Part shown: positions 22,658 to 56,974 of the stretch, one piece after another
How the letters are laid out: each line of letters opens with the position of its first letter
How positions within the stretch are numbered: position 1 is the stretch's first letter
Source: a virus
Reading direction: 5' to 3' (one strand)
DNA: 64,000 bases
IMG/VR virus record: IMGVR_UViG_3300032893_000036
Location: 3,221-67,220 of that record
Notes under the pieces: model-generated
What the model was told of the DNA's origin: nothing
What the model saw: only the letters and a program-made list of their open reading frames with translations
The model's database searches: none
Made by a program: the position numbers and the translations under genes

Positions 22658-24043
22658 TCATCGTCCGATCGCGAACCAATTACTCACGCTACCGGATGGC
22701 CCAGAATCTACCGTAATCACACATCCAGTCTGAGTGATACTGCTCGCAAAGTTAGACCCATCCGCCGCCTGTCCGTTGACCGCAACACTTCGATTGCTGC
22801 ACGGAAAGACGCCAAAGCATGCCGTCGGAAATGGCTTGGGGAACGTGATAGGAAAATCAACCGGAACGCCGGCCTGCGGAGTTGGGACGTTACCCCATTG
22901 CAGAATAGTGCCGCCAGGTAACGTTTCGGTGTTAGGCGTTATGCCGCCGCCCCATGAAGTTGGCTGCCCTATGCCATTCGATACTTCAACTTGCCCTTTC
23001 AGGCCATATCCACCACGGCTGATTGATGGGAAGGCAGCCAGATCGTATAGGAACTTAGAGCCGTCAAAAAACTCGTCGACAACGAGCACAGTCCCCGTCC
23101 CCGTACCAAACTGGTGACGGATGACCGCAGTTCCCGTCGCCCCCGGCGGAATATTGGCGCTCAGAATCACGCCAATGCCGCATTTCATTCCGACCACACC
23201 GCTCGAGACAACTGCATTGCCCGCCTGCGCGCTCGGATTAGTGCCTGTCGCGTTACCACCTTGGAGCGTGGCATCGCCAGCAATGGCATTAACCGATGTG
23301 CCGCCTTGCGCCTTATAGGCGCCTCCCGGTCCATTCAGTGATGCACCCGCGAAGTCCAGCAAGTCGCCGCCAGCATCAAGTCCCGGATTCCCAGGTGTAC
23401 TATCGGCATCTCCCGCCGAACGGATGACCGTGATGCCTTTCTGACCTGTAACCTGAGCATCGGTGATGTGGATCACTTGGCTTTTGGTAGCACCGCCAGC
23501 CAAAACACCCGAGCTCGGAATGCCCGACGCATTCGGCAGCAAAAAGCCCCACTGGAAATCGCCATAGCCAGCCGGATAGCCGTTTGGGCCTGCCACCTGT
23601 ACGGATCCTGACTCAAACGTCGGTTCGTAGGTGCCGCCCTGAGTCTGGGAATTGGCCAGCGCCACCGTCGCGCCATCGCTGACGATGAGCGTTCGTGTTC
23701 CAGGTGGCAATACAAGCGAGTTCCCAGCTGCGATTGAAAAAGAGAGAGTAAAGGCACCGGTTGCAGCGTTTGAAATAGTCCACAATCCACCGACGCCAAT
23801 CGGTATCTGGTAGGCGATATTCGCGCCAAGCGTTCCGTTGAACTCTATGTTTGGGGGCCGGTACTGAGTTAGGGTGAGCGTAGTTGTTGGGGTGACAACA
23901 CCTGTAACGGATATTGAAGTCGTGCCACCTAATGCCGCATCTATTGCTGAGAAATTCGCATTTACAGGGGTCGCCCAAGCGTTAACGTAGTCGCCTGATG
24001 CTGGCTCCTCAAGTCCTTTGTTGACTGAAAATGTACTCGTCAC
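22658..24043 (-). CDS. tail fibre / receptor-binding protein
   Basis: N-terminal virion anchor (NKGLE.PA.GD...W..PVN.N...ID), Gly-rich middle, C-terminal LPGGTILQWG...FP.PFPTAC fibre-tip domain. Confidence 0.8.
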   Translation of the reverse strand: MTSTFSVNKGLEEPASGDYVNAWATPVNANFSAIDAALGGTTSISVTGVVTPTTTLTLTQYRPPNIEFNGTLGANIAYQIPIGVGGLWTISNAATGAFTLSFSIAAGNSLVLPPGTRTLIVSDGATVALANSQTQGGTYEPTFESGSVQVAGPNGYPAGYGDFQWGFLLPNASGIPSSGVLAGGATKSQVIHITDAQVTGQKGITVIRSAGDADSTPGNPGLDAGGDLLDFAGASLNGPGGAYKAQGGTSVNAIAGDATLQGGNATGTNPSAQAGNAVVSSGVVGMKCGIGVILSANIPPGATGTAVIRHQFGTGTGTVLVVDEFFDGSKFLYDLAAFPSISRGGYGLKGQVEVSNGIGQPTSWGGGITPNTETLPGGTILQWGNVPTPQAGVPVDFPITFPKPFPTACFGVFPCSNRSVAVNGQAADGSNFASSITQTGCVITVDSGPSGSVSNWFAIGR

Positions 24044-26118
24044 AGCGTCTGACTCCTACCCGCGATATCTAACGCGCGAATGATCGACGCATCGGGCGCC
24101 TTGAGCAACGGTTCGGTGCCCTCATCGTTCATCTTCTTGGCCGCCTTATAGCGTTGCATGAGTCGGTTGAGTAGCGCATCGTGATCGACCTTGCCGCCAG
24201 AGGCGCGGGCAATAGGCGGCGGTTCCGGAACCGGTTTGGTCAATCCCGCGCCAGGAGCAAGTGAGCGCTTAGCAAAGCTATTTTCTGCAATGTTCTTTAG
24301 GACAGGTACTCCCATGCCAAAAGTCTTTGCATTGATAGCGGCCTCACCGAGTTCTCGCGCCGCACCAGTCGCCGCGTTGCGAATCACTCCCGATTTGCTG
24401 TAATTGACGAAGTTTCCTGGTGGTGCGACCTTTGCGTTATGCACTACGCGACCCAATGATTCGAGCGATTCCTGAGTTTCAGGACTCAGTAACAGGTCCA
24501 ACTTCGGATCGTACTTGGCCAACGCGCCGTTGTAACCGGATGGCGTAATCTTTCCTGTATTGCCAACGGCCGCCTTGCGTACTGCACTCAGTGTATGCGC
24601 CGCGACAGCCTGCTGCGCATCAGCATCAAATTTTTCCATGACGCGCTCAACATTTGCGCGCGGCGCCTGCAACACGTACTTATCTAGGAACTTGTCTGCA
24701 AGCGCCGATGGCTTACCGCGCTTGACCCCATTCAACGATACATCGTCAACAGCTGCTTGATATGCAGGATCAGCATCTAGCGCATCAAATCTAGCCTTCG
24801 CGGCCGCACGCGCTTGGTCGAATAACGCTTTCGCCTCAGCGCTTTCCGTTCCAACCGGCTGGACCTTCTGGAGTGCCTCTTGAACTTTGCCTACGGCGAA
24901 TGCGGCATTGCCATCGCCAGCCGCGCGGGCCTTGGCGATCTCGTTGCCAAGCTGCGTGCTGTAGGCTTGGAAGTCGTCCAATGACATCTTTCCGCCAGCC
25001 GATTCCACATCGTCCAATATCCCTTTTGCCGTACTCGGCAGATAGCGGAATTTGCTTTGCGGTTTCAATGCCGCGTTGGCATCTTGCACGAATGTAGAGC
25101 CATCCATCTGCAAGTCACCCGTGGCGGATGCCTTACGAGCAGCAGCATACTTCGCATCGATGCCTGCTTTAATCGGCTCATCGTATGCCTTCAATGCATC
25201 GACCGCGATCTGGCCATTCTCAACTGGATCATTCTGCACGTGCGATGGCGCAGCTTCGCGACGGATGTTGTCCAGTGCATCGACCATCTGACCTTCTTGG
25301 TCATTTATGCGTTTGACGATCGCGCCGTGCGTACTATTCTGCTCGTTTGAAAATTGCACCGGATCTCGCGTTGCTTGACCTTCGGTCAATTGGATGCCGT
25401 GCTTGTCAGCTTCTAAATGATTTTCTAGCGCTGTCTGATTCACTGATCCTTTTCTGGCAGCATCGCGATATGCCTGCTGCAACGGCGCACTCGCTTCTTC
25501 AATATCAGGAGCTGTTCGAGCTGCACCTAGCGATTGGGGTGAATCAAGTGTAGATGCATCGCGTCCTTTTTCCACCAATCCGCGATATACATCAGCGACC
25601 TTCCCAGCCGATCCCGTCACGGCCTGTCGTGCTTCTGATCCGCCCTTGGTCAAAGCCATCGTTGCTAAATCGCCAACCACGTCCGCCGTGCGCTCGTTGG
25701 TCGCGCCAGCAATCAAATCATGCGCCTTTTTGGTCGCCCAAGTGACCGGTGTCATAACCGTGTTCAGCGCGTTCATGGCGGTCTTGCCGCCCTCAGTTTG
25801 CGCGTGATAATTCAACACTGGGTCGGTCTGGATTTCTTTCTCTAACGCCGCACGCCCCTCTTTTCCAGGCAGGATGTCATTGACGGCGTGTGTCACGGCT
25901 TTAAGACCACTGGAGCCAACTGCCAAACCTGCATCGCCAAGTCCCTTGATGGCGTTGAACCAAGTGTCGGCCTCGGATTCGGGAGTGCCTGCGTTTTTTG
26001 GCACTGGCAGCGGCTTGTCAGCTGCGAAGAATGCCGTGCGTGCATCTATGGGTGCTGCATCATCGTCAGCTGCACCGGCAGCGCCCTGTGCGAAAAAATC
26101 TGTGCGTGGATCGCTCAT
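24040..26118 (-). CDS. internal virion / DNA ejection protein
   Basis: Large Ala-rich helical protein in the ejection-protein position; RASGGKV near the C-terminus. Confidence 0.7.
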   Translation of the reverse strand: MSDPRTDFFAQGAAGAADDDAAPIDARTAFFAADKPLPVPKNAGTPESEADTWFNAIKGLGDAGLAVGSSGLKAVTHAVNDILPGKEGRAALEKEIQTDPVLNYHAQTEGGKTAMNALNTVMTPVTWATKKAHDLIAGATNERTADVVGDLATMALTKGGSEARQAVTGSAGKVADVYRGLVEKGRDASTLDSPQSLGAARTAPDIEEASAPLQQAYRDAARKGSVNQTALENHLEADKHGIQLTEGQATRDPVQFSNEQNSTHGAIVKRINDQEGQMVDALDNIRREAAPSHVQNDPVENGQIAVDALKAYDEPIKAGIDAKYAAARKASATGDLQMDGSTFVQDANAALKPQSKFRYLPSTAKGILDDVESAGGKMSLDDFQAYSTQLGNEIAKARAAGDGNAAFAVGKVQEALQKVQPVGTESAEAKALFDQARAAAKARFDALDADPAYQAAVDDVSLNGVKRGKPSALADKFLDKYVLQAPRANVERVMEKFDADAQQAVAAHTLSAVRKAAVGNTGKITPSGYNGALAKYDPKLDLLLSPETQESLESLGRVVHNAKVAPPGNFVNYSKSGVIRNAATGAARELGEAAINAKTFGMGVPVLKNIAENSFAKRSLAPGAGLTKPVPEPPPIARASGGKVDHDALLNRLMQRYKAAKKMNDEGTEPLLKAPDASIIRALDIAGRSQTL

Positions 26119-29100
26119 GGCGGAATCTGCCCATTCTCAAGCGCGCGCAGATTCGCACTCTTCAGCGCAAGTATCTTCATACCCTTCGGGCCGAGACGTG
26201 CGCGAAGCGCGTTCAATTCCGTCGTATCCCCGCGTCTAATCGCATCATCCGCGCGGTACACGTCAGGGTCGAAATTTTTCGCCCATGCAGATCGGAATGC
26301 TTGGTACTTCGCGAGATTCGGCGCCTGACCAGTCCCCACTGCCTTGTCGAGTCCTTCGCGATACGCCATCACGCCGCTGTTCAGCGCGTCAGCATATTTC
26401 ACTTTTTCCTGGAGTGCCTGCGGGGTGTACTCAGTGGTGCCCGTGGCAGTCTGCGATGCTGCCAGTCCCGCATTGGTGTGCGGAACTCCCATTGCCGCTG
26501 CTTGTGATGCGGCCTGCCGATCCAGGTAGGCGTTGATTTCCTGATAAGTGGACCCCGAAGGCATGCCAAGTACGGCCGCAATCTTTTGCCCTGTCTGTGT
26601 CCAAGGGCCAGTTTTGGTTTCTGCCGACAACCGTAGCAACTGCTGATTGATGTTGCGGTTATTGGGCGCCGCATCACCAGCTTCGCGTATGTGCGCGACC
26701 GCTTCCTGATCGAGTGCCTGCTGTCTGGCCGCGACCGGGGATTGAGATGCGCCGATGATCCCGGCGCCCGTGGTAGGCGCGGGCGGGCTGGGCGGGGGCG
26801 TTGCGATTGGAGGTGCAGCGCGCGTCGTGGCCATACCGCCAGATGGAGTAGCCGTTGAATTGACCATAAGGCTTCGCGCATACGCGGCTGGGCTGGCGGC
26901 ACCATGTGCGCGCCATGCCTCCATGTTCGTAACTTGACCGGTGTTTGGATCGCGCACATCCGTAGGCTCACGCGCGAGTCTCATGAACTCAGATTCTTGA
27001 GTAGGTGTAAACCCCTGCTGAGCGATCGTCCCAATCTCTGGTTGTTTCGTGCGAGCATTCTTGACGATGCCGCCTTCGATCCCTGTCTCGTCCCCAGTCC
27101 ACTGTCGCAGCGCGTTATAATGCGCGAGCGCGACCTGCTTCTCCGCGGGCGTTTTCGCTGTATTGTATTGCTGATATCGCGCATCAGCCATCAACTGAGC
27201 CTGATTGCGCGAGTTCTGCAAATCGCGCTCTACACGGGTCTGATAATCGGTATCAGCCTGCTTTTGGAACATGTCGCCGCCGATGGCCCAATCCTTCTTG
27301 ATTGCGGCGTCTTTGGCGGCTTGCTCCTCGGGTGTACGGGCTTTGTTGACGAAAAATTGCTTGCGATATTGTGATTCGAGTCCGCCAGCCGTCTGCGCAG
27401 CATCGTCGGTCGTAGCTGTTTGCGGGAGTGACTGTCGCGGCACCGTAGTCGGCGCGAGCGCATCCTTCGCGACCCCGAGTTTCAACGCCGCAAGCTGATT
27501 CGCGATCTCAATCTCTTTCGCTTTCTGTGTAATCTCCTCGGTCCCCGCTTGCGACCGCCGGGTATTCAGGTACGAGTCAGCCCCAGCACCCAGACCGGCC
27601 GCCAGTGCGACTCCGGGATGCACCGTCTTCGCGGTCCCCATCGCCGCAAGTCCCGACAGGATCGGCAGGATGTTCTCGGACTTCTGCCACCAGTGCGCGC
27701 CATTGGGCGGGGCGACACCAGTATCAGAAGTCGGAGGATCGTTTGGCGTGTCATCTGGGACATCGCCGCCGTCGTCATACTTGCGCCGCCCCGCGAGTCC
27801 GCCGCGCGCGAGCGCTTGGTTGCTGAAGATCTCTCCAGTATTGGTCATGGCCTGATCAGGCTCGCCGCCCTTCATGAGCGTCTGCAGCCCCGTAGGCCTC
27901 TTAACCAGTGGCCCCGGACTCTGCAGTTTCTCGTTGCTGACCTCTTCATCTGGAATGTCCAACTGCCCATTCGGATCGCTATACGGCGAGCCACCTGCGG
28001 CTAATCCGATTCGGCCGCCACGTTTGGCCGCTAGCGCAGCTACAGCGACGTCTGCCGCCGCGTATTCGGCCGCCAAGGCTGCCGCCTCAGTTGCCGCGGC
28101 ATCGGCTGCAGCGCCCGCAGCTGCGCTCCCAGCTGCCCCCGCCGCAGCTCCGCCGGCTGCGCCAGCGGCAGCTCCGGCCCCGGCATCCGCTGCTGCGCCC
28201 GCGCCCGCTCCAGCAGCCGCGTCTGCAGCTCCCGTTCCCGCTGCGGTATCCGCCGCGCCGAGTCCCGCGTCAAATGTCGTTGTGGTGCCTGCGTCCGCTG
28301 CCGGCTCTCCGAAATACGTTGTCGTCCCGAGACCCGATTGCGAAGGTGCGGCCGTAGCTGTCTCGGGCGTTCCAGCGCCATAGCTTACCGCCCCGCTGGG
28401 CTGAACTCCGGCAGGCTGCAGTCCGGTCGATGTCGCCGGATGCGCAGCTACCGGTCGGTTAAAGTACTTGTATCCCTGATAGGCGTCCTTCCCAAGCCCT
28501 TCAATCGTATTCACCTTGCTCGAGCCAGACGGTCCCGGCTGCGGCGTACCCTGTGCGACGGCGAGCTGGTGACTCGTGCCCTGCGAGGGAATATTGCGCT
28601 GCCCCCCATTCTCATGCGGTGCGTACATCCGTTGCTGCGCCGCCAATACCGCATCCAATCCTCCGGTATCTCCGCCATCTGCGTATCGGCGCCGCGGAAA
28701 TGGCACCACGCCGCCTTCGTAGAAATGCGCGCGATTCGCTGCCTCCTCGGTCGCTCGGCCGTAGTCGACGTACTTGAATCCGCCTGCGAGTCCCACCGCC
28801 TCGGGATGCTTCTTTTCGACCTGCTGGGCTGACAGTCCGATCTGGTCTCGGCTGTCGCCCCTCATCTTGTATCGATAGATCGGTTGCCCGTCGAACGTCT
28901 TGCCGATTGGCTCCATGTCCTCCTTCAGCCGCTCGTCGCTGAAGAACCCGCCTGGCTGCGTCGTGGTCGTCGTTGATCCCGACAGCGCGCCGGTCCCTTC
29001 CGCGATGTTCGCCAAGAACTGCGCGACCTGGAACGGATAGGACTGCTGCTGCAAGAATTGCTGGTATTGCGCGGTGTCCTGCGCCTGCTGCGTCTGCTGC

Positions 29101-29828
29101 TGGACGGTGCCGGCGCCAATCTGGGCTTGCGCACCTTGCAATCCAGCAGTCTGCGCTCCGGACCCAAGTGCGGCCATTTCGGATGCCGTATTGGCGCCCT
29201 CACCGTAGGCCGTCGAACCGATGTCGGCGAGCTGCTTCGCGCCCGCAAGCCCGATCTGTTGCTGACCTTGCGCCGTGCTCAACGCGGACTGATAGCCCTG
29301 ATTCGCGATTCCGGAGTAAATGTTGGCGTTCGCGAGATTCTGTTGCTGTTCGAGATTCGCTGCAGCGATGCCCGTCCTGTCGCCGCCAAAAGCGCCTGAC
29401 GTGATGGCATTGCCCAACTGGCCGGCTTGCTGCTGCTGATTGTTCTGATTTATCAGAGCGCCTGTGCTGCCCAGCACAGTCTGTAGATACGGCGACAAAT
29501 ACTGATCGATCTGTTGTCCAGTCAATGGCGCCGAACTGACTTGCGTTCCCGATTCGGCTGCCGCGTTGATAGGATTGGTTGCCGCTTGCGCGGCTCCCAG
29601 TCCACTTCTCGCAGTAGCGTAATATGGCTGCGCTTCGTTTGCGGCTGCGTTGGTGCCAACAATTCCTGAATATTGTTCCGTGTTGACTGGTGCTACAAAC
29701 TCTCCGCCATAGGTTTGGAAAGGAGTTTGAGCAACTTGGTTCGCTCTTGCGTTGACGGCAGAGTACTGTGCAAGTACCTGTGGAGGCACCTGCACTTGTT
29801 GTGTCGATGTTGCAGTCTTGCCTCCCAA
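26115..29828 (-). CDS. large ejection (pilot) protein with internal peptidase S74 domain
   Basis: MGGK.. Gln/Ala-rich N-terminus; FSDERLKED...IGLSAQQVE..HPEAV...VDY; Gly/Ala zipper; several xxGG motifs. Confidence 0.78.
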   Translation of the reverse strand: MGGKTATSTQQVQVPPQVLAQYSAVNARANQVAQTPFQTYGGEFVAPVNTEQYSGIVGTNAAANEAQPYYATARSGLGAAQAATNPINAAAESGTQVSSAPLTGQQIDQYLSPYLQTVLGSTGALINQNNQQQQAGQLGNAITSGAFGGDRTGIAAANLEQQQNLANANIYSGIANQGYQSALSTAQGQQQIGLAGAKQLADIGSTAYGEGANTASEMAALGSGAQTAGLQGAQAQIGAGTVQQQTQQAQDTAQYQQFLQQQSYPFQVAQFLANIAEGTGALSGSTTTTTQPGGFFSDERLKEDMEPIGKTFDGQPIYRYKMRGDSRDQIGLSAQQVEKKHPEAVGLAGGFKYVDYGRATEEAANRAHFYEGGVVPFPRRRYADGGDTGGLDAVLAAQQRMYAPHENGGQRNIPSQGTSHQLAVAQGTPQPGPSGSSKVNTIEGLGKDAYQGYKYFNRPVAAHPATSTGLQPAGVQPSGAVSYGAGTPETATAAPSQSGLGTTTYFGEPAADAGTTTTFDAGLGAADTAAGTGAADAAAGAGAGAAADAGAGAAAGAAGGAAAGAAGSAAAGAAADAAATEAAALAAEYAAADVAVAALAAKRGGRIGLAAGGSPYSDPNGQLDIPDEEVSNEKLQSPGPLVKRPTGLQTLMKGGEPDQAMTNTGEIFSNQALARGGLAGRRKYDDGGDVPDDTPNDPPTSDTGVAPPNGAHWWQKSENILPILSGLAAMGTAKTVHPGVALAAGLGAGADSYLNTRRSQAGTEEITQKAKEIEIANQLAALKLGVAKDALAPTTVPRQSLPQTATTDDAAQTAGGLESQYRKQFFVNKARTPEEQAAKDAAIKKDWAIGGDMFQKQADTDYQTRVERDLQNSRNQAQLMADARYQQYNTAKTPAEKQVALAHYNALRQWTGDETGIEGGIVKNARTKQPEIGTIAQQGFTPTQESEFMRLAREPTDVRDPNTGQVTNMEAWRAHGAASPAAYARSLMVNSTATPSGGMATTRAAPPIATPPPSPPAPTTGAGIIGASQSPVAARQQALDQEAVAHIREAGDAAPNNRNINQQLLRLSAETKTGPWTQTGQKIAAVLGMPSGSTYQEINAYLDRQAASQAAAMGVPHTNAGLAASQTATGTTEYTPQALQEKVKYADALNSGVMAYREGLDKAVGTGQAPNLAKYQAFRSAWAKNFDPDVYRADDAIRRGDTTELNALRARLGPKGMKILALKSANLRALENGQIPP

Positions 29829-29829: not shown

Positions 29830-30354
29830 TTAGTTACTTCCTTCGTTGGTTACATTCCCCGGAAAGCAACCTGTCTTTCTGCCGTGAATCCAGTATTTGC
29901 CAGATGCTGGACCCAAAACGCGCTCGTACAATTTACATTTGGCATCGGTCTGAATTGAGGACAGGACTCCGATCAGCAACGGGAGTCCTAGCTTCTCAGC
30001 AGATGATTTGCTGAACTCGATCAATTTGTGGGCGCGCCCACCGCGTGCGTTGCGATAGTCTGGATGGACGAATAATACGAGTTCTTCCAAGCATGTCTCG
30101 TCCGAATAGAACAGCTTGCCGATCTGCAGGACTACGATGCCCTCGATCTTGCCGCCGCGTGGGCCGATGCAGCCGATGAGTCCGGTTTGAAGATTGAGCT
30201 TCGGCCAGATGGTGCGCACAAGCAATTCTGTCTCGAACTTGAGCAACCCGTTTTCCGTCGCTGCCATCATGGCGAGCTGCATGATCTCGTCCATGTCCGC
30301 CGTGGTGCCGAGGCGGATTTTTAGGTCGTCGTAGATGGAGAGGGTTAGGCTCAT
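29830..30354 (-). CDS. GNAT acetyltransferase
   Basis: IRLGT.ADM...LFVHPDYR..RGG.A.KL...KLYER; position analogous to T7 gp13 / P22 gp14. Confidence 0.8.
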   Translation of the reverse strand: MSLTLSIYDDLKIRLGTTADMDEIMQLAMMAATENGLLKFETELLVRTIWPKLNLQTGLIGCIGPRGGKIEGIVVLQIGKLFYSDETCLEELVLFVHPDYRNARGGRAHKLIEFSKSSAEKLGLPLLIGVLSSIQTDAKCKLYERVLGPASGKYWIHGRKTGCFPGNVTNEGSN

Positions 30355-30659
30355 TGCGTTAGCCAATCAGCGGCTTGGTGAGCCATCTGCAGCAATTCGG
30401 GATGGATATAGATCCCGAATCTGTCTGGGCCAACATCGGTGACCCGAATCTTTGTCTGATATTCGGCAGGAATACTTTCAGTCATGTGACCTTGCATCAA
30501 TACGATCTGATCGGCCCAATCGCATAACATCGTTAAGGTCTTTTTGGACACCCTCAGTCGACCCACGGCGATAGACTCATGTCCACGAAGATCGTGCAGG
30601 ACGTAGGCCAGCGCGTGAGATCGCACGTTCCCGCCATCGCAGACGCATAGATATTTCAC
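30351..30659 (-). CDS. low-molecular-weight protein tyrosine phosphatase-like protein
   Basis: N-terminal LCVCDGGNVRS is a CX5RS P-loop; L..WAD.I..M is also typical of the family. Confidence 0.72.
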   Translation of the reverse strand: MKYLCVCDGGNVRSHALAYVLHDLRGHESIAVGRLRVSKKTLTMLCDWADQIVLMQGHMTESIPAEYQTKIRVTDVGPDRFGIYIHPELLQMAHQAADWLTQ

Positions 30660-30663: not shown

Positions 30664-31623
30664 TCAGTCCTTCCTCGGCGGCGCAAGCTTCTCCAACTTC
30701 CCAATGTGCTCCTTGCGGATCTTGAGCACGAAGGAGTCCAGCACGCGGTGGCCTCGATCCATGTCGCCCGCGCCAATTTGTTCAACGTGTCTAGGACTTA
30801 TCACCCACTCACCTCCCGCGGCGACAATCGGCACACCCGAGGCCTCACCACCGTGCGCTTTTCGAGCGCGTAGTTTTTCGAGCGCCTTACGGACTCCCGG
30901 ATGCAAGGGGAGTTTTTCCGCTTCAGATGGCTTGATCCAGACCGCTCCATCGTGCTCCTCGTTCAAGGTGGGCTTAAACTTGTCGGTAGAATGAGCTACG
31001 AAGGTTGTGAAATCAACGCCTTGACCTTTGCTGTGCATGAACGGGGATAGACCCCCCTCGTGCGAGTAGCCGGCTTCCTCTTCGGTCTCGCGCCGGGCCG
31101 CCTGCTCAGGCGTCTCGCCCTTTTCGATGCCGCCCGCGGGGAGCGCCCACTCGCCGACGTGGTCCTTCCCCCGGCGACGCAGCAGCAAGACTTCTTTCTC
31201 GGGGGATACGAAAAGGATGCCGGCTGCGTGGTGGACCTTGCCACCGGCCGCGCGGGGCAGTGGCTCGCCATAAGGTCCGCCCTTCTGACCGTAAGGGCGG
31301 TTGCTCGCGCCATACGGCTCACCACCGAACATGCGGCGGAGCACCTTGAACCCCGCCAACGTGTTGTTCTCGCCCAAATGAGAAACGCAGTCCGCTGGAA
31401 GAACGTAGGACCCACTTTCCACTGTAATTGGTAGGTGATCCGTCCGTCCCGCGACCGAACTGTGAATCGGGCCAGAGTGGAACTTAGTGACGGTCTGGCC
31501 GCCCTCGGCGCGTTTGCGGCGGGCGACGTCGAGAGCGATAGCAACGGCTTGCCGATGAGGGTGATTCTCGCTCTCAACCTCAATGTTGTGACCGATGTTG
31601 CGTTTGCCGGGGAGGAGGGGCAC
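30664..31623 (-). CDS. multi-module virion-associated protein containing a Nudix hydrolase
   Basis: Nudix box GGIEKGETPEQAARRETEEEAG; flanked by two copies of a P.....G.(Y/W)V.....V..(L/I)G module; N-terminal MPL..G...I..NI...QAVAIAL module. Confidence 0.82.
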   Translation of the reverse strand: MPLLPGKRNIGHNIEVESENHPHRQAVAIALDVARRKRAEGGQTVTKFHSGPIHSSVAGRTDHLPITVESGSYVLPADCVSHLGENNTLAGFKVLRRMFGGEPYGASNRPYGQKGGPYGEPLPRAAGGKVHHAAGILFVSPEKEVLLLRRRGKDHVGEWALPAGGIEKGETPEQAARRETEEEAGYSHEGGLSPFMHSKGQGVDFTTFVAHSTDKFKPTLNEEHDGAVWIKPSEAEKLPLHPGVRKALEKLRARKAHGGEASGVPIVAAGGEWVISPRHVEQIGAGDMDRGHRVLDSFVLKIRKEHIGKLEKLAPPRKD

Positions 31624-48888: not shown

Positions 48889-49233
48889 TTACGCTTTCTG
48901 GTCCATGCCGCCGATGTCAGGATCCGGGCCCATCGTCTTGTGGCCCGGTGGCTCCTTGCCCTTGTTCGCGCCCGTGAACGGATTCGCCTCCGATCCCGTG
49001 CGGCCGCCGCTCTTGCGCGGTTTCCTGCCCGCATGCATCGGCGCTTTGCCGCCATCAATCTTGCCAACCTCAGTCTTGCCACCATGCTTTCGCTTCGCAC
49101 GGCCGCCCTTCTTCATCTCCTCAGCCTCGTCATCAATCTTCTTCGCGTTCGTGCGCGGTTCGGGTTTGGACTTCAGGTCCTCCTCATCCTCATTCACGCC
49201 GCCCGTCGATCGAGATTTACGTCCGCCTTTCAT
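48889..49233 (-). CDS. basic low-complexity xxGG-repeat protein
   Basis: MKGG, RSTGG, MKKGG, RKHGG, KIDGG, RKSGG, DIGG in 114 aa; GGAG SD. Confidence 0.75.
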   Translation of the reverse strand: MKGGRKSRSTGGVNEDEEDLKSKPEPRTNAKKIDDEAEEMKKGGRAKRKHGGKTEVGKIDGGKAPMHAGRKPRKSGGRTGSEANPFTGANKGKEPPGHKTMGPDPDIGGMDQKA

Positions 49234-49834: not shown

Positions 49835-50562
49835 TTCACTTCCTCGGTCGTGACAATCGTCAGGGCCGGAGTAGTCGGCTCACGACCGGAATGCTTGTCG
49901 AGGTACTTCACGGCGGCGAGCAGGATATCTCGATTATCCTTTGCTTTGCCCAACATCTGATTGCATTCCGAGCAGAGCAACGCGCGTACTTTACCCGTTT
50001 CATGGTCGTGATCGACTGAAAGTGCTTTCACTTTGCCGCCACGAGTATGGGTCTCTTCGCCGTTGCATATTGCGCATTTTCCGCTCTGAGCAATCAGCAT
50101 CTGGCCGTACTCTGCCAGCGAAAGATTGAACTTGCTGCGTAGATGGGCGTCCTTCCAGTCCATACCCTGAGCAGCCTGATATTCGCGATTGTAATCAGCG
50201 CGCCCCTCCGGCGTGCTCAGATCATGCGGAGTCGTTATTGAATTAGACTGCCGCAGATTCTGAATCCGCAGATTGAGTGGATCGCCGTCCTCGAAATAAA
50301 TCTTCCCTATAGGCCATTCGCCGTAATGGAGTGCCCAAGCGACTCGTTGAGCTGGCATCGACGCACCAAGCACGCGGACATACCTGTATGCGCCCTTGCT
50401 GCCATCTGAGAGCGTTCGCGTGGACTTAGTGCAGCCCGCTTCGGAGCCAACACGTACCTTAGATGCGCTCTTGACGCGCCAGAAAATCTTACCGGTCTCA
50501 GGGTCGTAAACGAAAATCTCGGCCAGCTTCTCAACCGGCACTGCGTTTTGATCGAAAGGCAT
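49831..50562 (-). CDS. homing endonuclease (degenerate HNH N-terminus plus endonuclease VII-like domain)
   Basis: YDPETG..W...G.EAG, RVAWALHYG.WP; Q.GKCAIC...LSVDHDHETGKVRALLCSECN..LG..KDN. Confidence 0.85.
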   Translation of the reverse strand: MPFDQNAVPVEKLAEIFVYDPETGKIFWRVKSASKVRVGSEAGCTKSTRTLSDGSKGAYRYVRVLGASMPAQRVAWALHYGEWPIGKIYFEDGDPLNLRIQNLRQSNSITTPHDLSTPEGRADYNREYQAAQGMDWKDAHLRSKFNLSLAEYGQMLIAQSGKCAICNGEETHTRGGKVKALSVDHDHETGKVRALLCSECNQMLGKAKDNRDILLAAVKYLDKHSGREPTTPALTIVTTEEVK

Positions 50563-50663
50563 ATAAGTCTCCAAGTTGTTGTTGGAGACTATAGTATATC
50601 CTTTAGATAAAACGGCGGAAATCATTTTTTGACAGATAACTTTTGGAGATTTATGAAAGATAA

Positions 50664-51578
50664 TCAGCTAGTTGGGAACGAGCCGTAGAGCGATCTCCAA
50701 TTGAAGTACGAAAGGCTATAGCGCTCGTATCCCTTGACTAAAAGGTTATCAGTAACGAAGTCCACCTGCATGTCGCTCTCGTACGGAATGCGCTCCATGT
50801 AGGCGAGTCCGGGGATGTTGGTGAGCCCGAACCACGCGAACTGCGAGGTCAGGAAGTCCATCACCATGTAGCCTTCTGGGATGCCGCCAGCCGTCGACAG
50901 GATCGCGTTGACGTCGTTGTCGGCGGTGCCAGGCCGCAGTTCGGTCTTGGTCAGTCGAATTGCGACCGGCTCTAACTGCGGGGGTACGATCAGCTTGCGG
51001 AAGCGGGCGAACATCTTCAGTCCCGCCTGATCCTTGAAGTTCGTGCGGACCGACACCTGCGCGTTCAGCAGCGTCGCTTCGTTCAAGTCCACCTGCGTGG
51101 TCGGCGTGTTTGCAATCGTCGCGCCGTCGATCGGGTGGGTCGTCGCGCACAGCGCAACACCGTCACCGTTCACGTTCGCGTTGTAGGTCGTCGCGGTGTT
51201 GAGGACGTTCGCGCCGTAGATCTCTTTCGCTTGGTGGAACGACTCCATCAGCCCCAAGTTGGACGGGTGGAACTGGGTCTTGTACAGGTTATCGTCGATC
51301 GCTTTGCGCGTGATCGCGTAGCCCAAGCCGATCTCGATGTGCTCCTGGTTGTAGACGTATCGCTCGCCGGCATTGTTATCGAATGCCGTCTGGCCGCCTT
51401 CACTCTTCAGCTGCGCGAGAGGCAAGTAGCGCATCTCGGCCGTGCGCTCAAGCGCCAGCTTTGAGGTGTACTTGGTGAAGACTTTGTCATATTGAGACGG
51501 GATCTGTTCATATTTTCCGGTGACACCCCGGAGCCCCGGCAGCAACAGGTCTTTGATGGCTGAAAGATTAATTGCCAC
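50664..51578 (-). CDS. major capsid protein
   Basis: MAINLSAIKDLLLPGL, KSEG, LGYAITR.AIDDNLY, DGVAL....HP, LIVPPQL, ADNDVNA, DF.T.N...K..ERYS...WR..YGS. Confidence 0.92.
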   Translation of the reverse strand: MAINLSAIKDLLLPGLRGVTGKYEQIPSQYDKVFTKYTSKLALERTAEMRYLPLAQLKSEGGQTAFDNNAGERYVYNQEHIEIGLGYAITRKAIDDNLYKTQFHPSNLGLMESFHQAKEIYGANVLNTATTYNANVNGDGVALCATTHPIDGATIANTPTTQVDLNEATLLNAQVSVRTNFKDQAGLKMFARFRKLIVPPQLEPVAIRLTKTELRPGTADNDVNAILSTAGGIPEGYMVMDFLTSQFAWFGLTNIPGLAYMERIPYESDMQVDFVTDNLLVKGYERYSLSYFNWRSLYGSFPTS

Positions 51579-51584: not shown

Positions 51585-52340
51585 TTACTCCTGCGCCGCG
51601 GCTATGACGCTCTTCCAAATTCGCCCGTTGCGAATCATGGATATGAGCGGAACTCCTACGCCGTATTGGCGCGAGAGTTGACTGTGAGGAATGGATGCGT
51701 CGGCGCTCTTGATTGCCATGACCTGATTCCGTGTGAGTTTCGCTCTGCCGTCTGCTTTTTCGACGCGCTTTTCCGGCATCGGGACATGTGTCCACGTCTT
51801 GCCGGTGATGATCTGGTGAATGTTCGTTCGATCGATTCCGTACTTCTTGCTGAGATCTTTGAGGCTCTGCGCAGAATTGCGGATATCGACCACGTCGGCA
51901 TCAGTAAGTTTGGCTAGGTCATTCAACGTGCCGGGCCTCGGCGCCGGCAGTTTGAATCGGCCTCGCTTGATGCAGTCCGCCATGTTTTCTTTACGAGTGC
52001 CAGCCCGAAGATGATTCGGATTGACGCACGCCGGAGTGTCGCAAGAATGAAGTACGTCGAGGCCATCAGGAATAGGACCAATGAACAATTTGTGACTCAA
52101 TCGGTGAGCGATGTCTCCGCGACCGAGCCCCTTGCGGCCAGCGATCGACTTGAAATAGCCGTAACCGCTGTTGCTTAGAGTCCCAGTCCAAATCCAACAT
52201 CCTGTGTCAGATTTACGGCAACGGCTGAAAAATACAGCCAATGTTGCTTCTCGATCTGTGACAACCCGAAATGGAATTCCTTCGACGGCGTCAAATTCGC
52301 GCATGGCTTCTTCAACTGTGTTGAAACAGGAAGAAATCAT
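51585..52340 (-). CDS. HNH homing endonuclease with repeated C-terminal HTH modules
   Basis: CWIWTG...GYG, AHRLS...F.GPIPDGLDVLHSCD.P.CVNP.HL..GT.KEN; two AKLT..V..I...LS..YG repeats. Confidence 0.9.
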   Translation of the reverse strand: MISSCFNTVEEAMREFDAVEGIPFRVVTDREATLAVFFSRCRKSDTGCWIWTGTLSNSGYGYFKSIAGRKGLGRGDIAHRLSHKLFIGPIPDGLDVLHSCDTPACVNPNHLRAGTRKENMADCIKRGRFKLPAPRPGTLNDLAKLTDADVVDIRNSAQSLKDLSKKYGIDRTNIHQIITGKTWTHVPMPEKRVEKADGRAKLTRNQVMAIKSADASIPHSQLSRQYGVGVPLISMIRNGRIWKSVIAAAQE

Positions 52341-52341
52341 A

Positions 52342-52962
52342 TCACGTGTTAACCGCGACCGTCTGACGTGTTTCAACATTGTTGAATGCCACGATCGCGA
52401 GGTTGTAGGCCCCCGTCTGGGTACCATTCTGACCCGGCGGGTCAACCACAATCTCCTGGAGAGTCCAGGGGTATGCCGCAGTGGTCACACCGGTATGCAA
52501 CAGATAGGCGCCGGAGAGACCGTTCGCGGCCGTGCCGGTGCCGATGTTGAAATCGAAGTTCGCGCCGACATCGGCGATGACGACTCCGGTGGAATCGCTC
52601 TGCACAATGAACTGGGCGTTGGGGTCGTTGACGATGTAGGCTTCGATGGTCGACTGGTTGCCGCTGGTGACGGGACTGCCGCCCGGCCAGTAGTTCGACC
52701 ACTCTGTCTTTTTGCTCACCGTGGAGAGGTACTTGCAGCCGGTGAAGATGCCGGCCATCGTGACCGTGCTACCACCTGCGGCGCCTGCGGCCTGCTTGAT
52801 GGTGCCGTCGCCAGAGCCGACTCGGACTACCGGGTCACCGTTGTAAATGACCGTGGCGTTGTAGTCGATGCCGCCGTTTCGGAGCGCAACCTGTTCGTAA
52901 CTCGGCGTGCTGCCGCGACCGCGGTACTGCCGAAAGCCGAAAGGTGCATTGGTATTTGCCAT
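52342..52962 (-). CDS. capsid cement / minor capsid protein
   Basis: MANTNAPFGF, IY.GD.V, GIF.GC.Y, V.DP...F..Q; sits upstream of the capsid gene. Confidence 0.75.
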   Translation of the reverse strand: MANTNAPFGFRQYRGRGSTPSYEQVALRNGGIDYNATVIYNGDPVVRVGSGDGTIKQAAGAAGGSTVTMAGIFTGCKYLSTVSKKTEWSNYWPGGSPVTSGNQSTIEAYIVNDPNAQFIVQSDSTGVVIADVGANFDFNIGTGTAANGLSGAYLLHTGVTTAAYPWTLQEIVVDPPGQNGTQTGAYNLAIVAFNNVETRQTVAVNT

Positions 52963-53783: not shown

Positions 53784-54338
53784 CTATTCCGGTATCGGCA
53801 CGTGTTCGTAAGTCTTCTTCACGTTAACCAGTGACTTGCCTTTGTTGTCACGCTCCAGCGTCCCTGGGGGCGCGCCACCGAGTTGCTCTTCCTTGCCACG
53901 CACTTGTGCGCGCGCAACGCGCAAATCCCGTTGCTTCGCTTCCTGCGTGATCTCAAGCGGCCGCTCCATCAGAATCATGCCGTCGCGCTCGATGGTTTCG
54001 CCCTGAAATCCGATCGGCATCAACTCGGGATGCCGTGAGCGCGGGACAGCCTCCCAACCCTTGTGTGCCATCGCGACCTGGTACGAGGGATTCTCCTTGC
54101 CGAGAACAGTGTAGGTCTTCCACTCGTAGGACCAGCCGTCGGGGATGGTCTTCGGGTCAATGTAGAACTTGTCGACGCCATCGTCATCGGAGGCGGTCTG
54201 CTCGCGGAGCTCCATTGCGCGGCGCGCGGCGCGGGTACGGGGGTCTTCTTCGCGGGGCTTGGGTGGTTCAACAATGGGACCGGCAGATTTCAAGGCCGTA
54301 GACACCGCGCCGGCAACGCCTTTGGAATTCTCGCTCAT
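53784..54338 (-). CDS. head-module hypothetical protein
   Basis: PDGW.YEWK, GWE.V, G.ILMERP; follows the scaffold gene. Confidence 0.7.
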   Translation of the reverse strand: MSENSKGVAGAVSTALKSAGPIVEPPKPREEDPRTRAARRAMELREQTASDDDGVDKFYIDPKTIPDGWSYEWKTYTVLGKENPSYQVAMAHKGWEAVPRSRHPELMPIGFQGETIERDGMILMERPLEITQEAKQRDLRVARAQVRGKEEQLGGAPPGTLERDNKGKSLVNVKKTYEHVPIPE

Positions 54339-55279
54339 GACAATTTTCCTTCTCGCTTCAACGCGACCTTGTTGCGCGCGTAATCCTCGACGGACATGCC
54401 CATGATGCCGGCCATCTCAACCTCCTCAGAGGTCAGTTTCACGACGTTCGGCCGACCACCATGGGCGCCATTGCTGCGACTGACCGGCGCCGCCGCAGGA
54501 GCCCCACGCCCACCAGTTGGCTGTGCCGCGTCGGCAGAGGCGTCCTCTACGGCAGCTTTCGTGACAGATGGCGTGGCAACATCAAGCGTTTTTTCGACCG
54601 ACGCAAAATACTCGGGACTATCGGCCTTCAGACCACGGGCCAGAGCGAGCTCGTGGGCAGCCAGCATCTGACGATTCTTATGCTGATCGCGTACAAATTC
54701 GGGATGAGATCGAACCCAACTAGCTGATGCCGGTGATAGTTGTGCGCAGAATTGCTCAACGGGATCAACTGGCGCGCGTGGGACAGGTTTCGGCGCGGAT
54801 TCGAGCGCCTTTTTGCCCGCTTCGAGTTGAATTAGCTTTGCCGAGTTGTTGGCCATTTCGCGCTGCAACTTCGCGGCAGTTTTGAAGTCCTGCGCAGCTA
54901 GCGCTTCGGCGTATTGACCCTCCAAAGTGTCACTGGATTCGGTTAATCGTTCGATTGCGCCCTTCACCAAGTCCAATTGACTCGTCTGTACCTCGCCGCG
55001 GGCCTTCGCCTCGGCTTGGGATGCCTCGTTGGCTCTCTGTTCGGCTGCTTGGCGTGCCGCGCGCTCATCCTCAAGCTGTTTTTTCAGCTTTTCTAGGCCC
55101 TCATCAGGCGAAAGGGTTGTTTTTTCGACTTTGGCAGGCTCGGCGGAGACCTTTTCAATCTCAACTTCTGGAGTTGAGTCGGCCGAGGCGCCATTCGCGG
55201 CCTTTTTGGCCGCTTCGGAGACCGCTTTGGCGTCTGCGGCCTCTAAATCGACTGCAATTTCTTCTGTTGGTGTTGACAT
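54335..55279 (-). CDS. capsid scaffolding protein
   Basis: Acidic N-terminus, coiled coil, W...HP, DS.EYF, C-terminal V.LT.EE..MA...GM..E.YA..K. Confidence 0.8.
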   Translation of the reverse strand: MSTPTEEIAVDLEAADAKAVSEAAKKAANGASADSTPEVEIEKVSAEPAKVEKTTLSPDEGLEKLKKQLEDERAARQAAEQRANEASQAEAKARGEVQTSQLDLVKGAIERLTESSDTLEGQYAEALAAQDFKTAAKLQREMANNSAKLIQLEAGKKALESAPKPVPRAPVDPVEQFCAQLSPASASWVRSHPEFVRDQHKNRQMLAAHELALARGLKADSPEYFASVEKTLDVATPSVTKAAVEDASADAAQPTGGRGAPAAAPVSRSNGAHGGRPNVVKLTSEEVEMAGIMGMSVEDYARNKVALKREGKLS

Positions 55280-55292
55280 TTATTTTACTCGG

Positions 55293-55739
55293 TCACCAGA
55301 CCACGCCTGGATGTGGAATTTTCGCGCGAATACTCGTGTCTTTCACGAGCCGACAGGGTACGAAGTCCTTGCTGGATAGCGCATCGGAGCGCATGTTGAT
55401 GTCAAGCGCCCATGTGTCAGACGGGCGAACAACGACCCAGTCGTGCAGCGAAATCGGAATGCCCGTCTTGATGTTGGTGTACGGGTCAACGCGCTCAAAG
55501 TCGCAGTGTTCGCCGATTTTCACGACCAATCCCACCTTTCCTTGGTACACATCCTCGTCCAATACACGACGCGACAGAACAATGCCGCCCGCAGTCGTCT
55601 CGGGACGGCGATAAATCGCGAGTAACACCTCGTTCTGCGCGATTTCGAACTCGGACACGTCGCCGATTTTCGCCAGGATCTCTTTTTTCAGATCATTGGC
55701 GGGGTCGTTTTGCTTGCTTTTCAGGGCGGTTGCTGGCAT
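55293..55739 (-). CDS. GroES-like co-chaperonin
   Basis: VL......PETTAGGIVL...VGLVVKIG...DWVV. Confidence 0.7.
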   Translation of the reverse strand: MPATALKSKQNDPANDLKKEILAKIGDVSEFEIAQNEVLLAIYRRPETTAGGIVLSRRVLDEDVYQGKVGLVVKIGEHCDFERVDPYTNIKTGIPISLHDWVVVRPSDTWALDINMRSDALSSKDFVPCRLVKDTSIRAKIPHPGVVW

Positions 55740-55742
55740 GGG

Positions 55743-55946: not shown

Positions 55947-55949
55947 GTT

Positions 55950-56147
55950 CTATCCGGGAAGGACCCAGCCGACAGCGCCGAAGCCCAGACATTCCGGGCA
56001 TTCGACCTCGCGCATTTTAATCGCGATTGGCTCAACATCGGTTAGCTTCACTTCTCCTGTGAATAGCGGCTTATCAAGCGAAGGCCGCTCCCAATATTCC
56101 TCTGTGATCCTGCCAGTGTTTTTGCAGCGCTTGCAGTTGAACATCAA
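55950..56147 (-). CDS. zinc-finger protein
   Basis: CKRC..TG...CPEC.G.G (DnaJ-like CxxCxGxG). Confidence 0.55.
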   Translation of the reverse strand: MMFNCKRCKNTGRITEEYWERPSLDKPLFTGEVKLTDVEPIAIKMREVECPECLGFGAVGWVLPG

Positions 56148-56974
56148 CCGTACGCCTTAGCCTTCTCCAACCTCCCCAACCCACTGCCACTACCCGCATT
56201 GAGCGGATAGTTCGTCCGGCCGCCCGACTTGCGCGCCATCATCGGCGCACCGGTAGGCGGTCCCATCGGAGCGGGCGGCGGCGCGCCTTGGTGCAGCCCG
56301 ACTGGGCCACTCAGAGGCGGGGGCATCGCGCCCGGTGGCGGCATCGGCGGCGGACCGCCCGCCATCCCTCCCGGCTGCGTGATGATAATGTTGACGTTGG
56401 TCTTGCCTTTGGTCCGGCCGCCGCCCTTGCGGGCCAGCCGACCAGCAACGGGACGAGTCCCACCTTGAGCGACCGATACGCCGCCTTTGGCGTGACCCAC
56501 TCGGCCGCCGCCGCACTTCGAGCAGCCGCAACCGGCGACATGGACCTTGCCGCCGTCCTTGCGCTGCATGACGGTCGGGGGCAACGGTGAGCTGCCCGTG
56601 TTCTGGATCAGAGGGCCGCCGGCAAGTTTGCCAGCGCGCCCGCCGCGCTTCATGCCGCCGATGTGCTTGGTACCTTCGCGCGACTCGTTCGCTTCCTTCA
56701 CGTCCTCGTTGATGAGTCCACCGTCGACCTTGATCCGGCCGCCTGACGCGCGCGGCTTCCGGTCGGCGCGCATGGCGCTCTTTAAGCCATCCACTGCGCC
56801 ACCGCTGCGGAACTGCCGGCGCGACACTGGGCGCGGACCGGTCTGGACCCCTGCATCCAGCGGCCCCTCCGGCGAGTACCCGCTCGCGTCAACACGCGAT
56901 CGTGGATCGGATTTCACCAACCGTTCAGCCTTCGATTTCGCGGCAGCTCGAGCAGATTCTGACGTGGAACTCAT
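56144..56974 (-). CDS. basic xxGG-repeat protein with Pro-rich C-terminus
   Basis: About 12 xxGG motifs; TNVNIII; GSG.GRLEK end. Confidence 0.75.
   Translation of the reverse strand: MSSTSESARAAAKSKAERLVKSDPRSRVDASGYSPEGPLDAGVQTGPRPVSRRQFRSGGAVDGLKSAMRADRKPRASGGRIKVDGGLINEDVKEANESREGTKHIGGMKRGGRAGKLAGGPLIQNTGSSPLPPTVMQRKDGGKVHVAGCGCSKCGGGRVGHAKGGVSVAQGGTRPVAGRLARKGGGRTKGKTNVNIIITQPGGMAGGPPPMPPPGAMPPPLSGPVGLHQGAPPPAPMGPPTGAPMMARKSGGRTNYPLNAGSGSGLGRLEKAKAYG

Follow-up and report, generated by a model that had tools for sequence, protein, structure and literature searches.

Internal proteins packaged in the head of bacteriophage T4 share only a capsid targeting sequence (CTS), and foreign proteins can be loaded when they carry it, as described in the available text of PMC3012670. 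Outside T4, P22 and T7, the loading of ejection proteins and cargo into the procapsids of short-tailed phages is poorly understood; in the available text of the paper on phage SU10, five virion proteins that leave with the genome are termed ejection proteins, and the strings 'protease', 'cleav' and 'scaffold' each occur 0 times. Here we describe a Gly-Gly-centred motif that recurs in five proteins encoded in IMG/VR virus record IMGVR_UViG_3300032893_000036. The window, that is, the whole stretch of 64,000 nucleotides that was analysed, comprises bases 3221-67220 of this 67,220-base record, which CheckV rates as complete, and judged by its genes the source is a 67-kb podophage with a portal and adaptor of SU10 type. 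The five proteins, named here by their length in residues, are by their sequences two basic, disordered head proteins and three ejection or cargo proteins:

56144..56974, minus strand: p276, directly downstream of the portal gene
48889..49233, minus strand: p114, downstream of the capsid gene
30664..31623, minus strand: p319, a conserved core of ~165-200 residues with an inserted NUDIX domain
26115..29828, minus strand: p1237, a giant putative ejection protein, matching phrog_4287 'DNA ejection protein' over residues 1-364
24040..26118, minus strand: p692, of the ejection module, conserved in a C-terminal module but variable in its body (14 homologues)

The original prediction was that a recurrent xxGG motif in these proteins is either a protease site or a docking tag. 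All five open reading frames (ORFs) are present on the minus strand (gene calls were the longest non-overlapping ORFs), and every peptide quoted in support of the motif is found in them. Several of these peptides are not conserved in homologues, however; KGGEP and ENGG of p1237 are kept in 1 and 3 of 20, respectively, and three of the four GG of p692 in just 0-3 of 14. By a test that the prediction had itself named, enrichment of the bare GG pair beyond glycine-matched shuffles, the motif barely exceeds chance overall. With 2000 composition-matched shuffles per protein, p276 contains 16 GG against 10.4 in shuffles (P=0.027), p114 7 against 3.7 (P=0.04), p319 8 against 4.8 (P=0.10), p1237 19 against 16.4 (P=0.28) and p692 4 against 4.5 (P=0.69), and two proteins that had not been listed, encoded at 38753-39451 and 42428-43156, give similar values (P=0.03 and 0.04). 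A bipartite pattern, GGx5-7GG, was rejected as a specific signal because other proteins are enriched in it too (11 against 3.8 expected); clustering of glycine as such is thus unspecific.

A motif profile built from 527 GG contexts in 31 metagenome homologues of p276 has Arg or Lys at position -3, Lys, Ala or Arg at -2, Ser or another small residue at -1, Arg or Lys at +1 and Val, Ala or Thr at +2. The consensus can be written [RK]-[KRA]-x-G-G-[KR]-[VIT]; variants that are less basic, for example (F/Y)xxGG(V/D), also occur. When the five proteins were compared with the 54 other proteins of the window using 1000 shuffles, [KR]x0-2GG[KR] was found 22 times against 2.2 expected in the five (P<=0.001) and 5 times against 2.6 in the others, and GG[KR][VIT] 12 times against 0.7 and 4 times against 1.5, respectively. 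The first pattern is strongest in p276 and p114 (10 against 0.8 and 8 against 0.6). We also used a matrix that scores the flanks of each GG only, trained on the p276 homologues without the window's own protein. Matching flanks surround 5 of the 38 GG in p114, p319, p1237 and p692 and 1 of 134 elsewhere in the window (Fisher P=0.002); this one is a weak context match among 54 proteins, 18 of them early, which bears out the statement that early proteins, capsid and portal have no comparable clustering. The picture is similar in the independently annotated uncultured phage MW202675, where matching flanks surround 9 of the 68 GG of seven internal proteins and 1 of the 83 GG of 72 other coding sequences (P=0.003), with a further 6 of 13 in its p276 homologue.

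Thirty protein families were then surveyed in fetched viral contigs (IMG/VR homologues), leaving out members at least 95 % identical to the window protein and the GenBank loci L001 (MW202675) and L031-L033; for eight proteins of the window the surveyed loci contained no homologue. A strong copy, defined by a flank score of at least 5, is present in 13/13 p692-type, 12/21 p1237-type, 8/30 p319-type and 49/50 p114-type members, and in 33/33 of the p276 type, which is the training family. Among the 732 members of the other 25 families just 4 have one, and there are none in capsid (0/80), portal (0/28), scaffold (0/57) or GroES-like proteins (0/48), nor in two GG-rich fibre-like families (0/12 and 0/19). 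The motif is specific to the five families and is kept where its flanks drift, the GG islands of p1237, p692, p319 and p276 having flanks that are 24-68 % identical. For the three large proteins the support comes from this conservation in their homologues.

The motif is also present in the AT-rich pelagiphage HTVC027P, in gp41, gp42 and gp47 beside the portal (two large proteins and a 112-residue basic protein). An origin as a DNA-level repeat was rejected, since no stretch of identical DNA in p114 and p276 exceeds 17 nt and the motif is retained in this AT-rich genome; it is therefore selected at the protein level. Conserved islands, predicted disorder and recurrence in five families together make it a lineage-specific short linear motif, and where structures were modelled it lies in predicted disordered linkers, often at domain junctions.

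The richest carrier is p276, a Gly/Pro-rich protein with an isoelectric point (pI) of 11.1, 19.5 % Gly and 44 Lys and Arg among its 276 residues. It has no match in Pfam (E<=0.01), PHROGs, NCBIfam or PDB sequences; more than 1049 homologues are of similar length, none with a Pfam domain, and 520 are longer. The protein is predicted to be disordered (ESM Atlas model, predicted local distance difference test (pLDDT) 0.43, predicted template modelling score 0.10), and its matches in that atlas are to unnamed viral clusters alone, with scores up to 0.87. The GG pairs at residues 58, 106, 111, 156, 164, 185 and 251 are kept in 31/31 homologues and that at 78 in 30/31, with flanks around the kept pairs 44-83 % identical. 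Insertions in relatives bring extra [RK]xxGG[RK] copies, and the median number of [KR]x0-2GG[KR] copies is 10 in 120 homologues of 254-476 residues and 16 in those of 484-769 residues (r=0.81 between length and copy number, 240 homologues). The family averages 17 % Lys plus Arg, 19 % Gly and 11 % Pro. Elements of p276 are:

56210..56812, minus strand: motif-bearing stretch, residues 55-255, with 10 GG sites of flank score at least 3
56513..56542, minus strand: H-x3-C-x-C-x2-C element (H145, C149, C151, C154); C154 invariant, the others at least 90 % conserved
56147..56209, minus strand: near-invariant C-terminal tail, YP..G.G..LGRLEKAKAYG (alignment of 32 sequences)

The H-x3-C-x-C-x2-C pattern, present in 116/120 p276 homologues and also in one p114 homologue (L080), is a possible zinc knuckle. 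In the tail, Y256, P257, G261, G263, G267, R268, L269, E270 and K271 are invariant in the 32 sequences; G[LA][GR]RLEK lies within the last 40 residues of 109/120 homologues, and some long forms have the tail duplicated. We note that one long p276-type protein (P0295) contains a DUF6496 module, and that the N-terminal 40 residues of p319 (31504-31623) match the 52-residue phrog_2423 and by eye resemble the DUF6496 module; small helical modules seem to be common to the p276 and p319 families.

The second small basic protein, p114 (pI 9.9), has no Pfam family at E<=0.01. A longer block had been noted as common to p114 and p276, and it is recovered by BLASTP (14/23 identical, E=2e-5), with 15/21 identical residues when p114 is compared with a metagenome homologue of p276; from these alignments we regard p114 as a miniature paralogue of the p276 GG module. 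Homologues are present in 53 of 80 head-module loci, and 33 distinct ones retain TGG, MKKGGRAKRKxGG and RKPRKSGGR when aligned. The two genes accompany the head module even where the ejection module differs, for example in a prophage of Acidisoma, the head module of which includes p276-like and p114-like genes; a search of the Acidisoma isolate genome for the p692 C-terminal module gave no match.

The p319 protein contains a NUDIX domain at residues 131-250 (Pfam, E=3e-22). In its AlphaFold2 model (pLDDT 76), segments with pLDDT below 50, in which the GG at 41, 100-127 and 258 are located, separate a helix from two beta-alpha units and these from the NUDIX domain that lies between them. The sites are:

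31498..31503, minus strand: GG 41-42 (RKRAEGG), after the N-terminal helix; kept in 19/22 homologues, residues 40-46 with pLDDT <50
31240..31326, minus strand: predicted disordered linker, residues 100-128, just before NUDIX, with three GG (FGG, KGG, AAGGKV)
30844..30855, minus strand: linker 257-260 (KAHGGE), just after NUDIX; GG in 22/22 homologues, pLDDT <50

In the linker before NUDIX, residues 102-128 have pLDDT <50 and PRAAGGKVH has a flank score of 6.6. Core-only homologues of 158-225 residues lack NUDIX and have one GG where the window copy has two. Other variants carry different inserts: in one (L021) RRASGGKA and ARAHGGGV enclose a domain that looks ParB-like by eye, one of 931 residues (L003) joins a Zeta_toxin kinase and NUDIX with GG at every junction, and one of 605 residues (L015) has no family match. 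Compared in this way, the family has the architecture of a cargo carrier with swappable inserts. The core itself (residues 49-99 and 258-316) has 37 invariant columns in 22 sequences, many of them polar (H49, S55, R60, T61, D62, H63, D78, S81, E272, H292 and D296), and it looks enzyme-like. A model of the core (pLDDT 70.7), with its two repeated beta-alpha units, has no PDB match by Foldseek (best E 0.74), finds nothing above Z 3.9 in a wide VIA-align search, those hits being single helices only, and in BFVD matches uncharacterized proteins of uncultured phages only. We had hoped to see in this core a protease or reader of the motif, and the fold searches do not support it.

The homologue of p1237 in MW202675 is annotated 'internal virion protein D'. 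Features of p1237 and p692 are:

27753..28727, minus strand: low-complexity linker of p1237, residues 368-692, with six conserved GG islands
28794..28940, minus strand: Peptidase_S74 intramolecular-chaperone domain of p1237, residues 297-345 (PF13884, 29 bits against a cut-off of 22)
24043..24207, minus strand: residues 638-692 of p692, the C-terminal module, in which conserved helices come after RASGGKV
24187..24207, minus strand: RASGGKV of p692, residues 638-644; GG in 14/14 homologues, flank score 7.5, the best-conserved single instance

The p1237 linker is made up of A, G, P, S, T, Q and N to as much as 97 %, and in 20 homologues the GG at 372 is kept in 20, that at 385 in 15, 604 in 15, 612 in 18, 676 in 13 and 687 in 16, with flanks merely 24-47 % identical; other GG of p1237 are lost (kept in 0-4/20). 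Site 372 reads GG[VL][VIA]P in most homologues. The S74 domain is placed mid-protein after a 296-residue N-terminal part rich in Q, N, A and G, and that part alone matches a 392-residue 'DNA ejection protein' PHROG. This arrangement suggests a fusion with self-cleavage. We take the S74 domain to cut its own chain only, which leaves the GG motif unexplained.

In 5 of the 14 p692 homologues only the last 51-57 residues align. A profile of this C-terminal module finds at least 1395 clusters (50 % identity, E<=1e-3) among 1.84 billion representatives; the profile contains the motif columns, so that its matches are biased towards them. In the best 150 of the 1395 clusters, the module forms the extreme C-terminus of all 150 proteins, which range from 60 to 1080 residues, and the motif positions hold R in 143, A in 142, S/T/A in 139, GG in 150, K/R in 128 and V/I in 130. 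The RASGG module thus appears to behave as a constant anchor on otherwise unrelated bodies, which fits a binding tag. Its RASGG region aligns with p276 over 22 columns in hhalign (E=6.7e-4, probability 27 %), a possible remote homology.

The original prediction had noted that no recognizable prohead protease is encoded in the window, and none was recognized. Among the ORFs scanned for peptidase families (97 with Pfam, 33 with PHROGs, 18 with NCBIfam) only the S74 domain of p1237 was found; the first 3220 bases of the record are outside the window, and p184, p206, p194 and p213 are of unknown fold. The internal proteins of the window contain no HExxH (zincin) pattern. The two proteins proposed as readers fared no better, that of 53784-54338 having no family or PDB sequence match and that of 35023-35667 no Pfam or PHROGs match, and no PDB sequence matched profiles of p276, p184, p206 or the GroES-like protein with an E value below 0.02. 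The suggested analogy with C39 and ubiquitin-type proteases does not apply, as the motifs are internal and not at the end of a leader or ubiquitin-like domain: conserved copies are internal or ~50 residues from the C-terminus, no window protein ends in GG, the motif-bearing segments are predicted disordered linkers, and no C39 or ABC-transporter family is found among the scanned ORFs. Literature searches for a GG signal in phage internal proteins, which did not extend to supplements, found no description. The available text of the pelagiphage preprint describes no such motif and mentions only that the set of structural proteins is novel and that there is a GroES gene, and the available text of the SU10 paper has no description of one; in PMC8954989 incorporat-, recruit-, scaffolding and proteoly- each occur 0 times. 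The literature searched contained no virion proteome of this lineage.

We tentatively favour the reading of the motif as a multivalent loading or retention tag, by analogy with the CTS of T4, and would give it a probability of roughly 0.4. The proposal that a short signal marks the internal proteins and is absent from capsid, portal and early proteins stands in a narrower, basic-flanked form, in hundreds of homologues, and falls as a statement about bare GG. Each copy would make a weak contact, in which Gly-Gly would permit close approach of the backbone, Arg and Lys would pair with acidic groups and the beta-branched residue would serve as a small hydrophobic anchor. The partner would be common to all carriers and abundant in the (pro)capsid lumen, such as the scaffold, the capsid wall or the portal during assembly, and after packaging DNA could be a partner as well. 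Many copies would provide avidity, by which the proteins could be taken up, retained in the head and then let go in sequence during ejection. Candidate partners and nearby genes are:

57249..60089, minus strand: portal ORF (Pfam SU10_portal, E=1.2e-11)
55293..55739, minus strand: GroES-like protein (phrog_3188, E=1.8e-5), between p276 and the scaffold gene
54335..55279, minus strand: scaffold-like protein, candidate partner, acidic (pI 5.3) with a helix-rich C-terminus
50664..51578, minus strand: major capsid protein, candidate partner (phrog_371; 75-97 % identity in 80 loci)
29830..30366, minus strand: GNAT-type acetyltransferase, candidate modifier (phrog_1249, E=2.4e-6; Pfam Acetyltransf_7 weak)

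Internal proteins must enter the procapsid before the DNA, and a shared loading signal would therefore be parsimonious. It is this need, together with the constant RASGG anchor and the way in which p276 and p114 travel with the head module, that leads us to prefer a tag; proteins of the p319 type would be packaged too, to judge by their position in the ejection module. Several observations weigh against a tag. Both the binding as such and what is bound we infer, so that the partner is entirely inferred. The matrix was trained on p276 homologues, which makes the p276 numbers partly circular; the three large window proteins carry only 1-2 basic copies each (P=0.005-0.24), and a strong basic copy is found in just 8 of the 30 p319-family members. 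The acidic variants YADGGD and YDDGGD are kept in 15-16 of 20 p1237 homologues and therefore can have no electrostatic partner in common with the basic copies. The main objection is that one tag would do for docking, yet the motif is present at nearly every junction of the cargo variants and on both sides of inserted domains, which suits linkers or cleavage sites at least as well.

On a second reading GG would mark the processing sites of a GG-specific protease, either a phage enzyme of unrecognized fold or a host enzyme, which would free cargo domains and break p276 and p114 down to small basic peptides; PRAAGGKV and RKAHGGE stand on either side of NUDIX, the ParB-like insert is (identified by eye) between RRASGGKA and ARAHGGGV, the Zeta_toxin and NUDIX variant has GG at its junctions, and GG is invariant where flanks drift. 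Packaged multidomain 'polyvalent proteins' are predicted to be processed in the available text of PMC5512222, and the adenovirus protease cleaves (M/I/L)XGG↓X in several core proteins according to that of PMC4246237. Family scans, the HExxH scan, the architecture and the P4 position all failed to support this half of the original interpretation, however. Self-cleaving S74 is the only peptidase family seen and the internal proteins lack HExxH, the p319 core has no protease fold by our searches, and the gene order of the head module looks like that of a protease-free, scaffold-plus-capsid type. The position equivalent to P4, hydrophobic in adenain sites, is K in 31 %, A in 17 % and R in 10 % of the 527 GG contexts, and A in 142 of the 150 listed p692-type modules. 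In addition, some copies are placed 3-4 residues from a terminus, where cutting would be pointless, as in MKGGR at the start of p114 and ARGGVAK at the end of an MW202675 protein. We therefore regard processing as unlikely. Its fullest form, in which such a protease (of the phage, for example the p319 core, or of the host) would mature the head contents in the manner of adenovirus, turning p276 and p114 into DNA-condensing peptides and p319 carriers into polyproteins that release NUDIX, a Zeta-like kinase and others, seems to us distinctly improbable.

The concentration of the enrichment in p276 and p114 (10 against 0.8 and 8 against 0.6) could instead reflect a nucleic-acid-binding grammar, in which these two proteins neutralize or condense DNA through basic GG units, and the few copies of the large proteins would simply attach these to DNA or be incidental. 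The pI values of 11.1 (p276, with 44 Lys and Arg) and 9.9 (p114), the family composition of p276 (17 % Lys plus Arg, 19 % Gly, 11 % Pro), its predicted disorder and the possible zinc knuckle in 116/120 homologues would all agree with this. RGG boxes, AT-hook-like motifs and the tails of ribosomal proteins are comparable units of contact with DNA or RNA. But p276 and p114 contain no AT-hook core (GRP), and the acidic GG variants cannot bind DNA; the near-invariant RASGG[KR]V always opens a helical C-terminal module in the 150 listed clusters, and this looks like a protein-protein element. Since proteins cannot enter along with the DNA, a protein partner in the procapsid would presumably still be needed. 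We regard a DNA-binding grammar as unlikely.

A passive hinge or turn, for example a flexible joint for threading through portal and tail, spread by descent and module shuffling without a specific reader, would agree with the location of all modelled sites in low-confidence linkers between folded units. Common descent is apparent in the paralogy of p114 with p276 and possible for the p692 RASGG region as a remote homologue of p276, and GGx5-7GG clusters are enriched in other proteins as well (11 against 3.8). Linkers seldom keep their flanks, however, whereas around this GG the residues R, A, S/T, K/R and V recur in 128-143 of the 150 listed clusters, which are less than 50 % identical to each other, and the hinge-rich fibre-like families, with more GG per 100 residues, never show these flanks (0/12 and 0/19). 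We consider a mere hinge quite unlikely.

Mimicry of the GroES mobile loop, which is defined by GG followed by a hydrophobic triplet within the co-chaperonin fold and by which the motifs would engage host GroEL, could draw on PETTAGGIVLS at the loop position of the phage GroES-like protein, on GG[VL][VIA]P at p1237 site 372 and on the conservation of the GroES-like gene in the head module of the lineage, but is rejected on the flanks as extremely improbable, because GG is followed by R (27 %) or K (12 %) and then V/A/T, that is, one aliphatic residue instead of three hydrophobic ones, PETTAGGIVLS lacks basic flanks and 0/48 GroES-like proteins match the motif matrix, and Caulobacter phage GB2A has a GroES-like gene yet no p276-like protein in its 27-kb locus, where the two weak context matches (score 3.4) are in small-terminase and homing-endonuclease ORFs.

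The structural genes of the window are on the minus strand in its right-hand two thirds, and the large terminase gene is on the plus strand. They encode the SU10_portal-family portal, an SU10-type adaptor, the major capsid protein, a nozzle-like 'virion structural protein' and tail-fibre-like proteins. The closest annotated record is MW202675.1, with 59 % identity in the portal; remoter portal relatives are found in Pelagibacter phages HTVC027P and HTVC023P, Roseobacter phages CRP-901/902 and Caulobacter phages. A megablast search of 16 kb against a phage collection gave no match, and by tblastn MW202675 alone shares the small proteins and modules. Portal relatives align only from residue 193 onwards, and the 5' extension of ~190 codons, which they do not share, overlaps the large terminase gene (59969-61585) on the opposite strand; the true portal start is probably near 59540. 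The GroES-like gene is kept in the head module across the lineage, in MW202675, HTVC027P (gp55), Caulobacter GB2A (gp089c) and the Acidisoma prophage, and the scaffold-like gene is located between the GroES-like and capsid genes here as in MW202675 and HTVC027P. The ejection module has the order nozzle-like p699, p139, p319, GNAT (p178), p1237, p692 and fibre, parts of which recur in 29 viral-contig loci and in MW202675. The GNAT gene between p319 and p1237 is present in all 29 ejection-module loci fetched with p1237, and in the pelagiphage preprint a figure legend, part of the available text, lists an HlyC-type lysine acyltransferase for that phage type.

In MW202675 (L001), three extra large multidomain proteins are encoded between the portal and the p276 homologue (20316-27813), where the window has no counterpart. 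They are 739, 847 and 898 residues long, are labelled peptidase M15, hypothetical and 'type I restriction enzyme', and carry the motif as HADGGRV, FKRGGRVGFAQGG, AKDGGRIGYKDGG and a C-terminal ARGGVAK. Homing-endonuclease-type genes flank the capsid gene of the window on the minus strand (49831-50625 and 51585-52451), one with HNH_3 and Endonuclease_7 domains and the other with HNH_3; the ORF at 51585-52451 overlaps the conserved p206 gene (52342-52962) by ~110 nt, and its real start is probably further downstream. A serine recombinase of the Resolvase family is encoded at 62438-63223, at the right end of the window, and the prophage with the related head module is located on a contig of 881 kb from Acidisoma cellulosilyticum HW T5.17. 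The two findings hint that part of the lineage is temperate and has an alphaproteobacterial host range. In the early region, 1292-3529, 11306-12007, 13290-14144 and 6481-6699 encode an SNF2-helicase/N6_N4 DNA methylase fusion, a C-5 cytosine methylase, a DUF5131 protein and a LuxR/GerE-type helix-turn-helix protein, respectively. Receptor binding or depolymerase activity is a possible role of the 639-residue protein of 39630-41549, which contains two stretches of fibronectin type III and weakly matches a rhamnogalacturonan-lyase beta-sheet domain.

The uncultured lineage is very large, with more than 1000 p276 clusters and at least 1395 of the p692 type, and reaches the abundant pelagiphage HTVC027P; all of its internal-protein families carry the motif. 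If the motif is a loading tag, it would offer a handle for predicting packaged effectors, for following cargo swapping and for packaging foreign proteins, and if it is a cleavage site, it would imply a new protease.

Among known systems, the GroES mobile loop resembles the motif in having Gly-Gly followed by aliphatic residues in a flexible loop, and the phage encodes a GroES-like protein beside p276, but the phage motif has basic flanks and a single aliphatic residue. RGG/RG boxes and AT-hook-like motifs, whose action on nucleic acids is multivalent, are like the motif basic, Gly-rich repeats in disordered regions; they differ in that the order here is [RK]xxGG[KR][VIT], with no RGG repeats and no GRP core, and neither p276 nor p114 matches the Pfam KGG repeat (PF10685) or other Gly-rich repeat families. 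The cargo-loading peptides of encapsulins are short, Gly-containing, disordered tails, usually single and terminal, which bind the lumen of a shell with the HK97 fold. The invariant p276 tail (..GLGRLEK..) is similar in flavour, as an impression from sequence, although the capsid of a tailed phage must also admit DNA. In T4 the CTS occurs once, at the N-terminus, and is cut off by the prohead protease. The likeness to IPI-III of T4 is that otherwise unrelated internal proteins have a short peptide in common, and would be one of functional analogy only; the GG motif differs in being internal or C-terminal, in 1 to more than 20 copies, without a recognizable protease gene. The sites of the adenovirus protease are a GG consensus in several internal, basic, DNA-associated virion proteins (PMC4246237, available text), whereas the phage motif lacks the hydrophobic P4 and no adenain-like or other cysteine peptidase family was found. 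Polyvalent proteins of phages and conjugative elements (Iyer et al. 2017), multidomain effectors that are packaged and enter the host along with the DNA, are resembled by the p319 variants that join NUDIX and a Zeta-toxin-like kinase on one carrier, thus placing several unrelated effector domains on one, presumably packaged, polypeptide, and by the three large multidomain proteins near the MW202675 portal; they are predicted to be processed by embedded zincin-like peptidases, none of which is detectable here, and the available text of that paper (PMC5512222) describes no junction motif, as 'linker' and 'glycine' have 0 occurrences in it. That proteins inside a capsid can have a short signal in common is already known, and what is new here is a signal that is internal, repeated, centred on Gly-Gly, lineage-wide and not accompanied by a recognizable protease.

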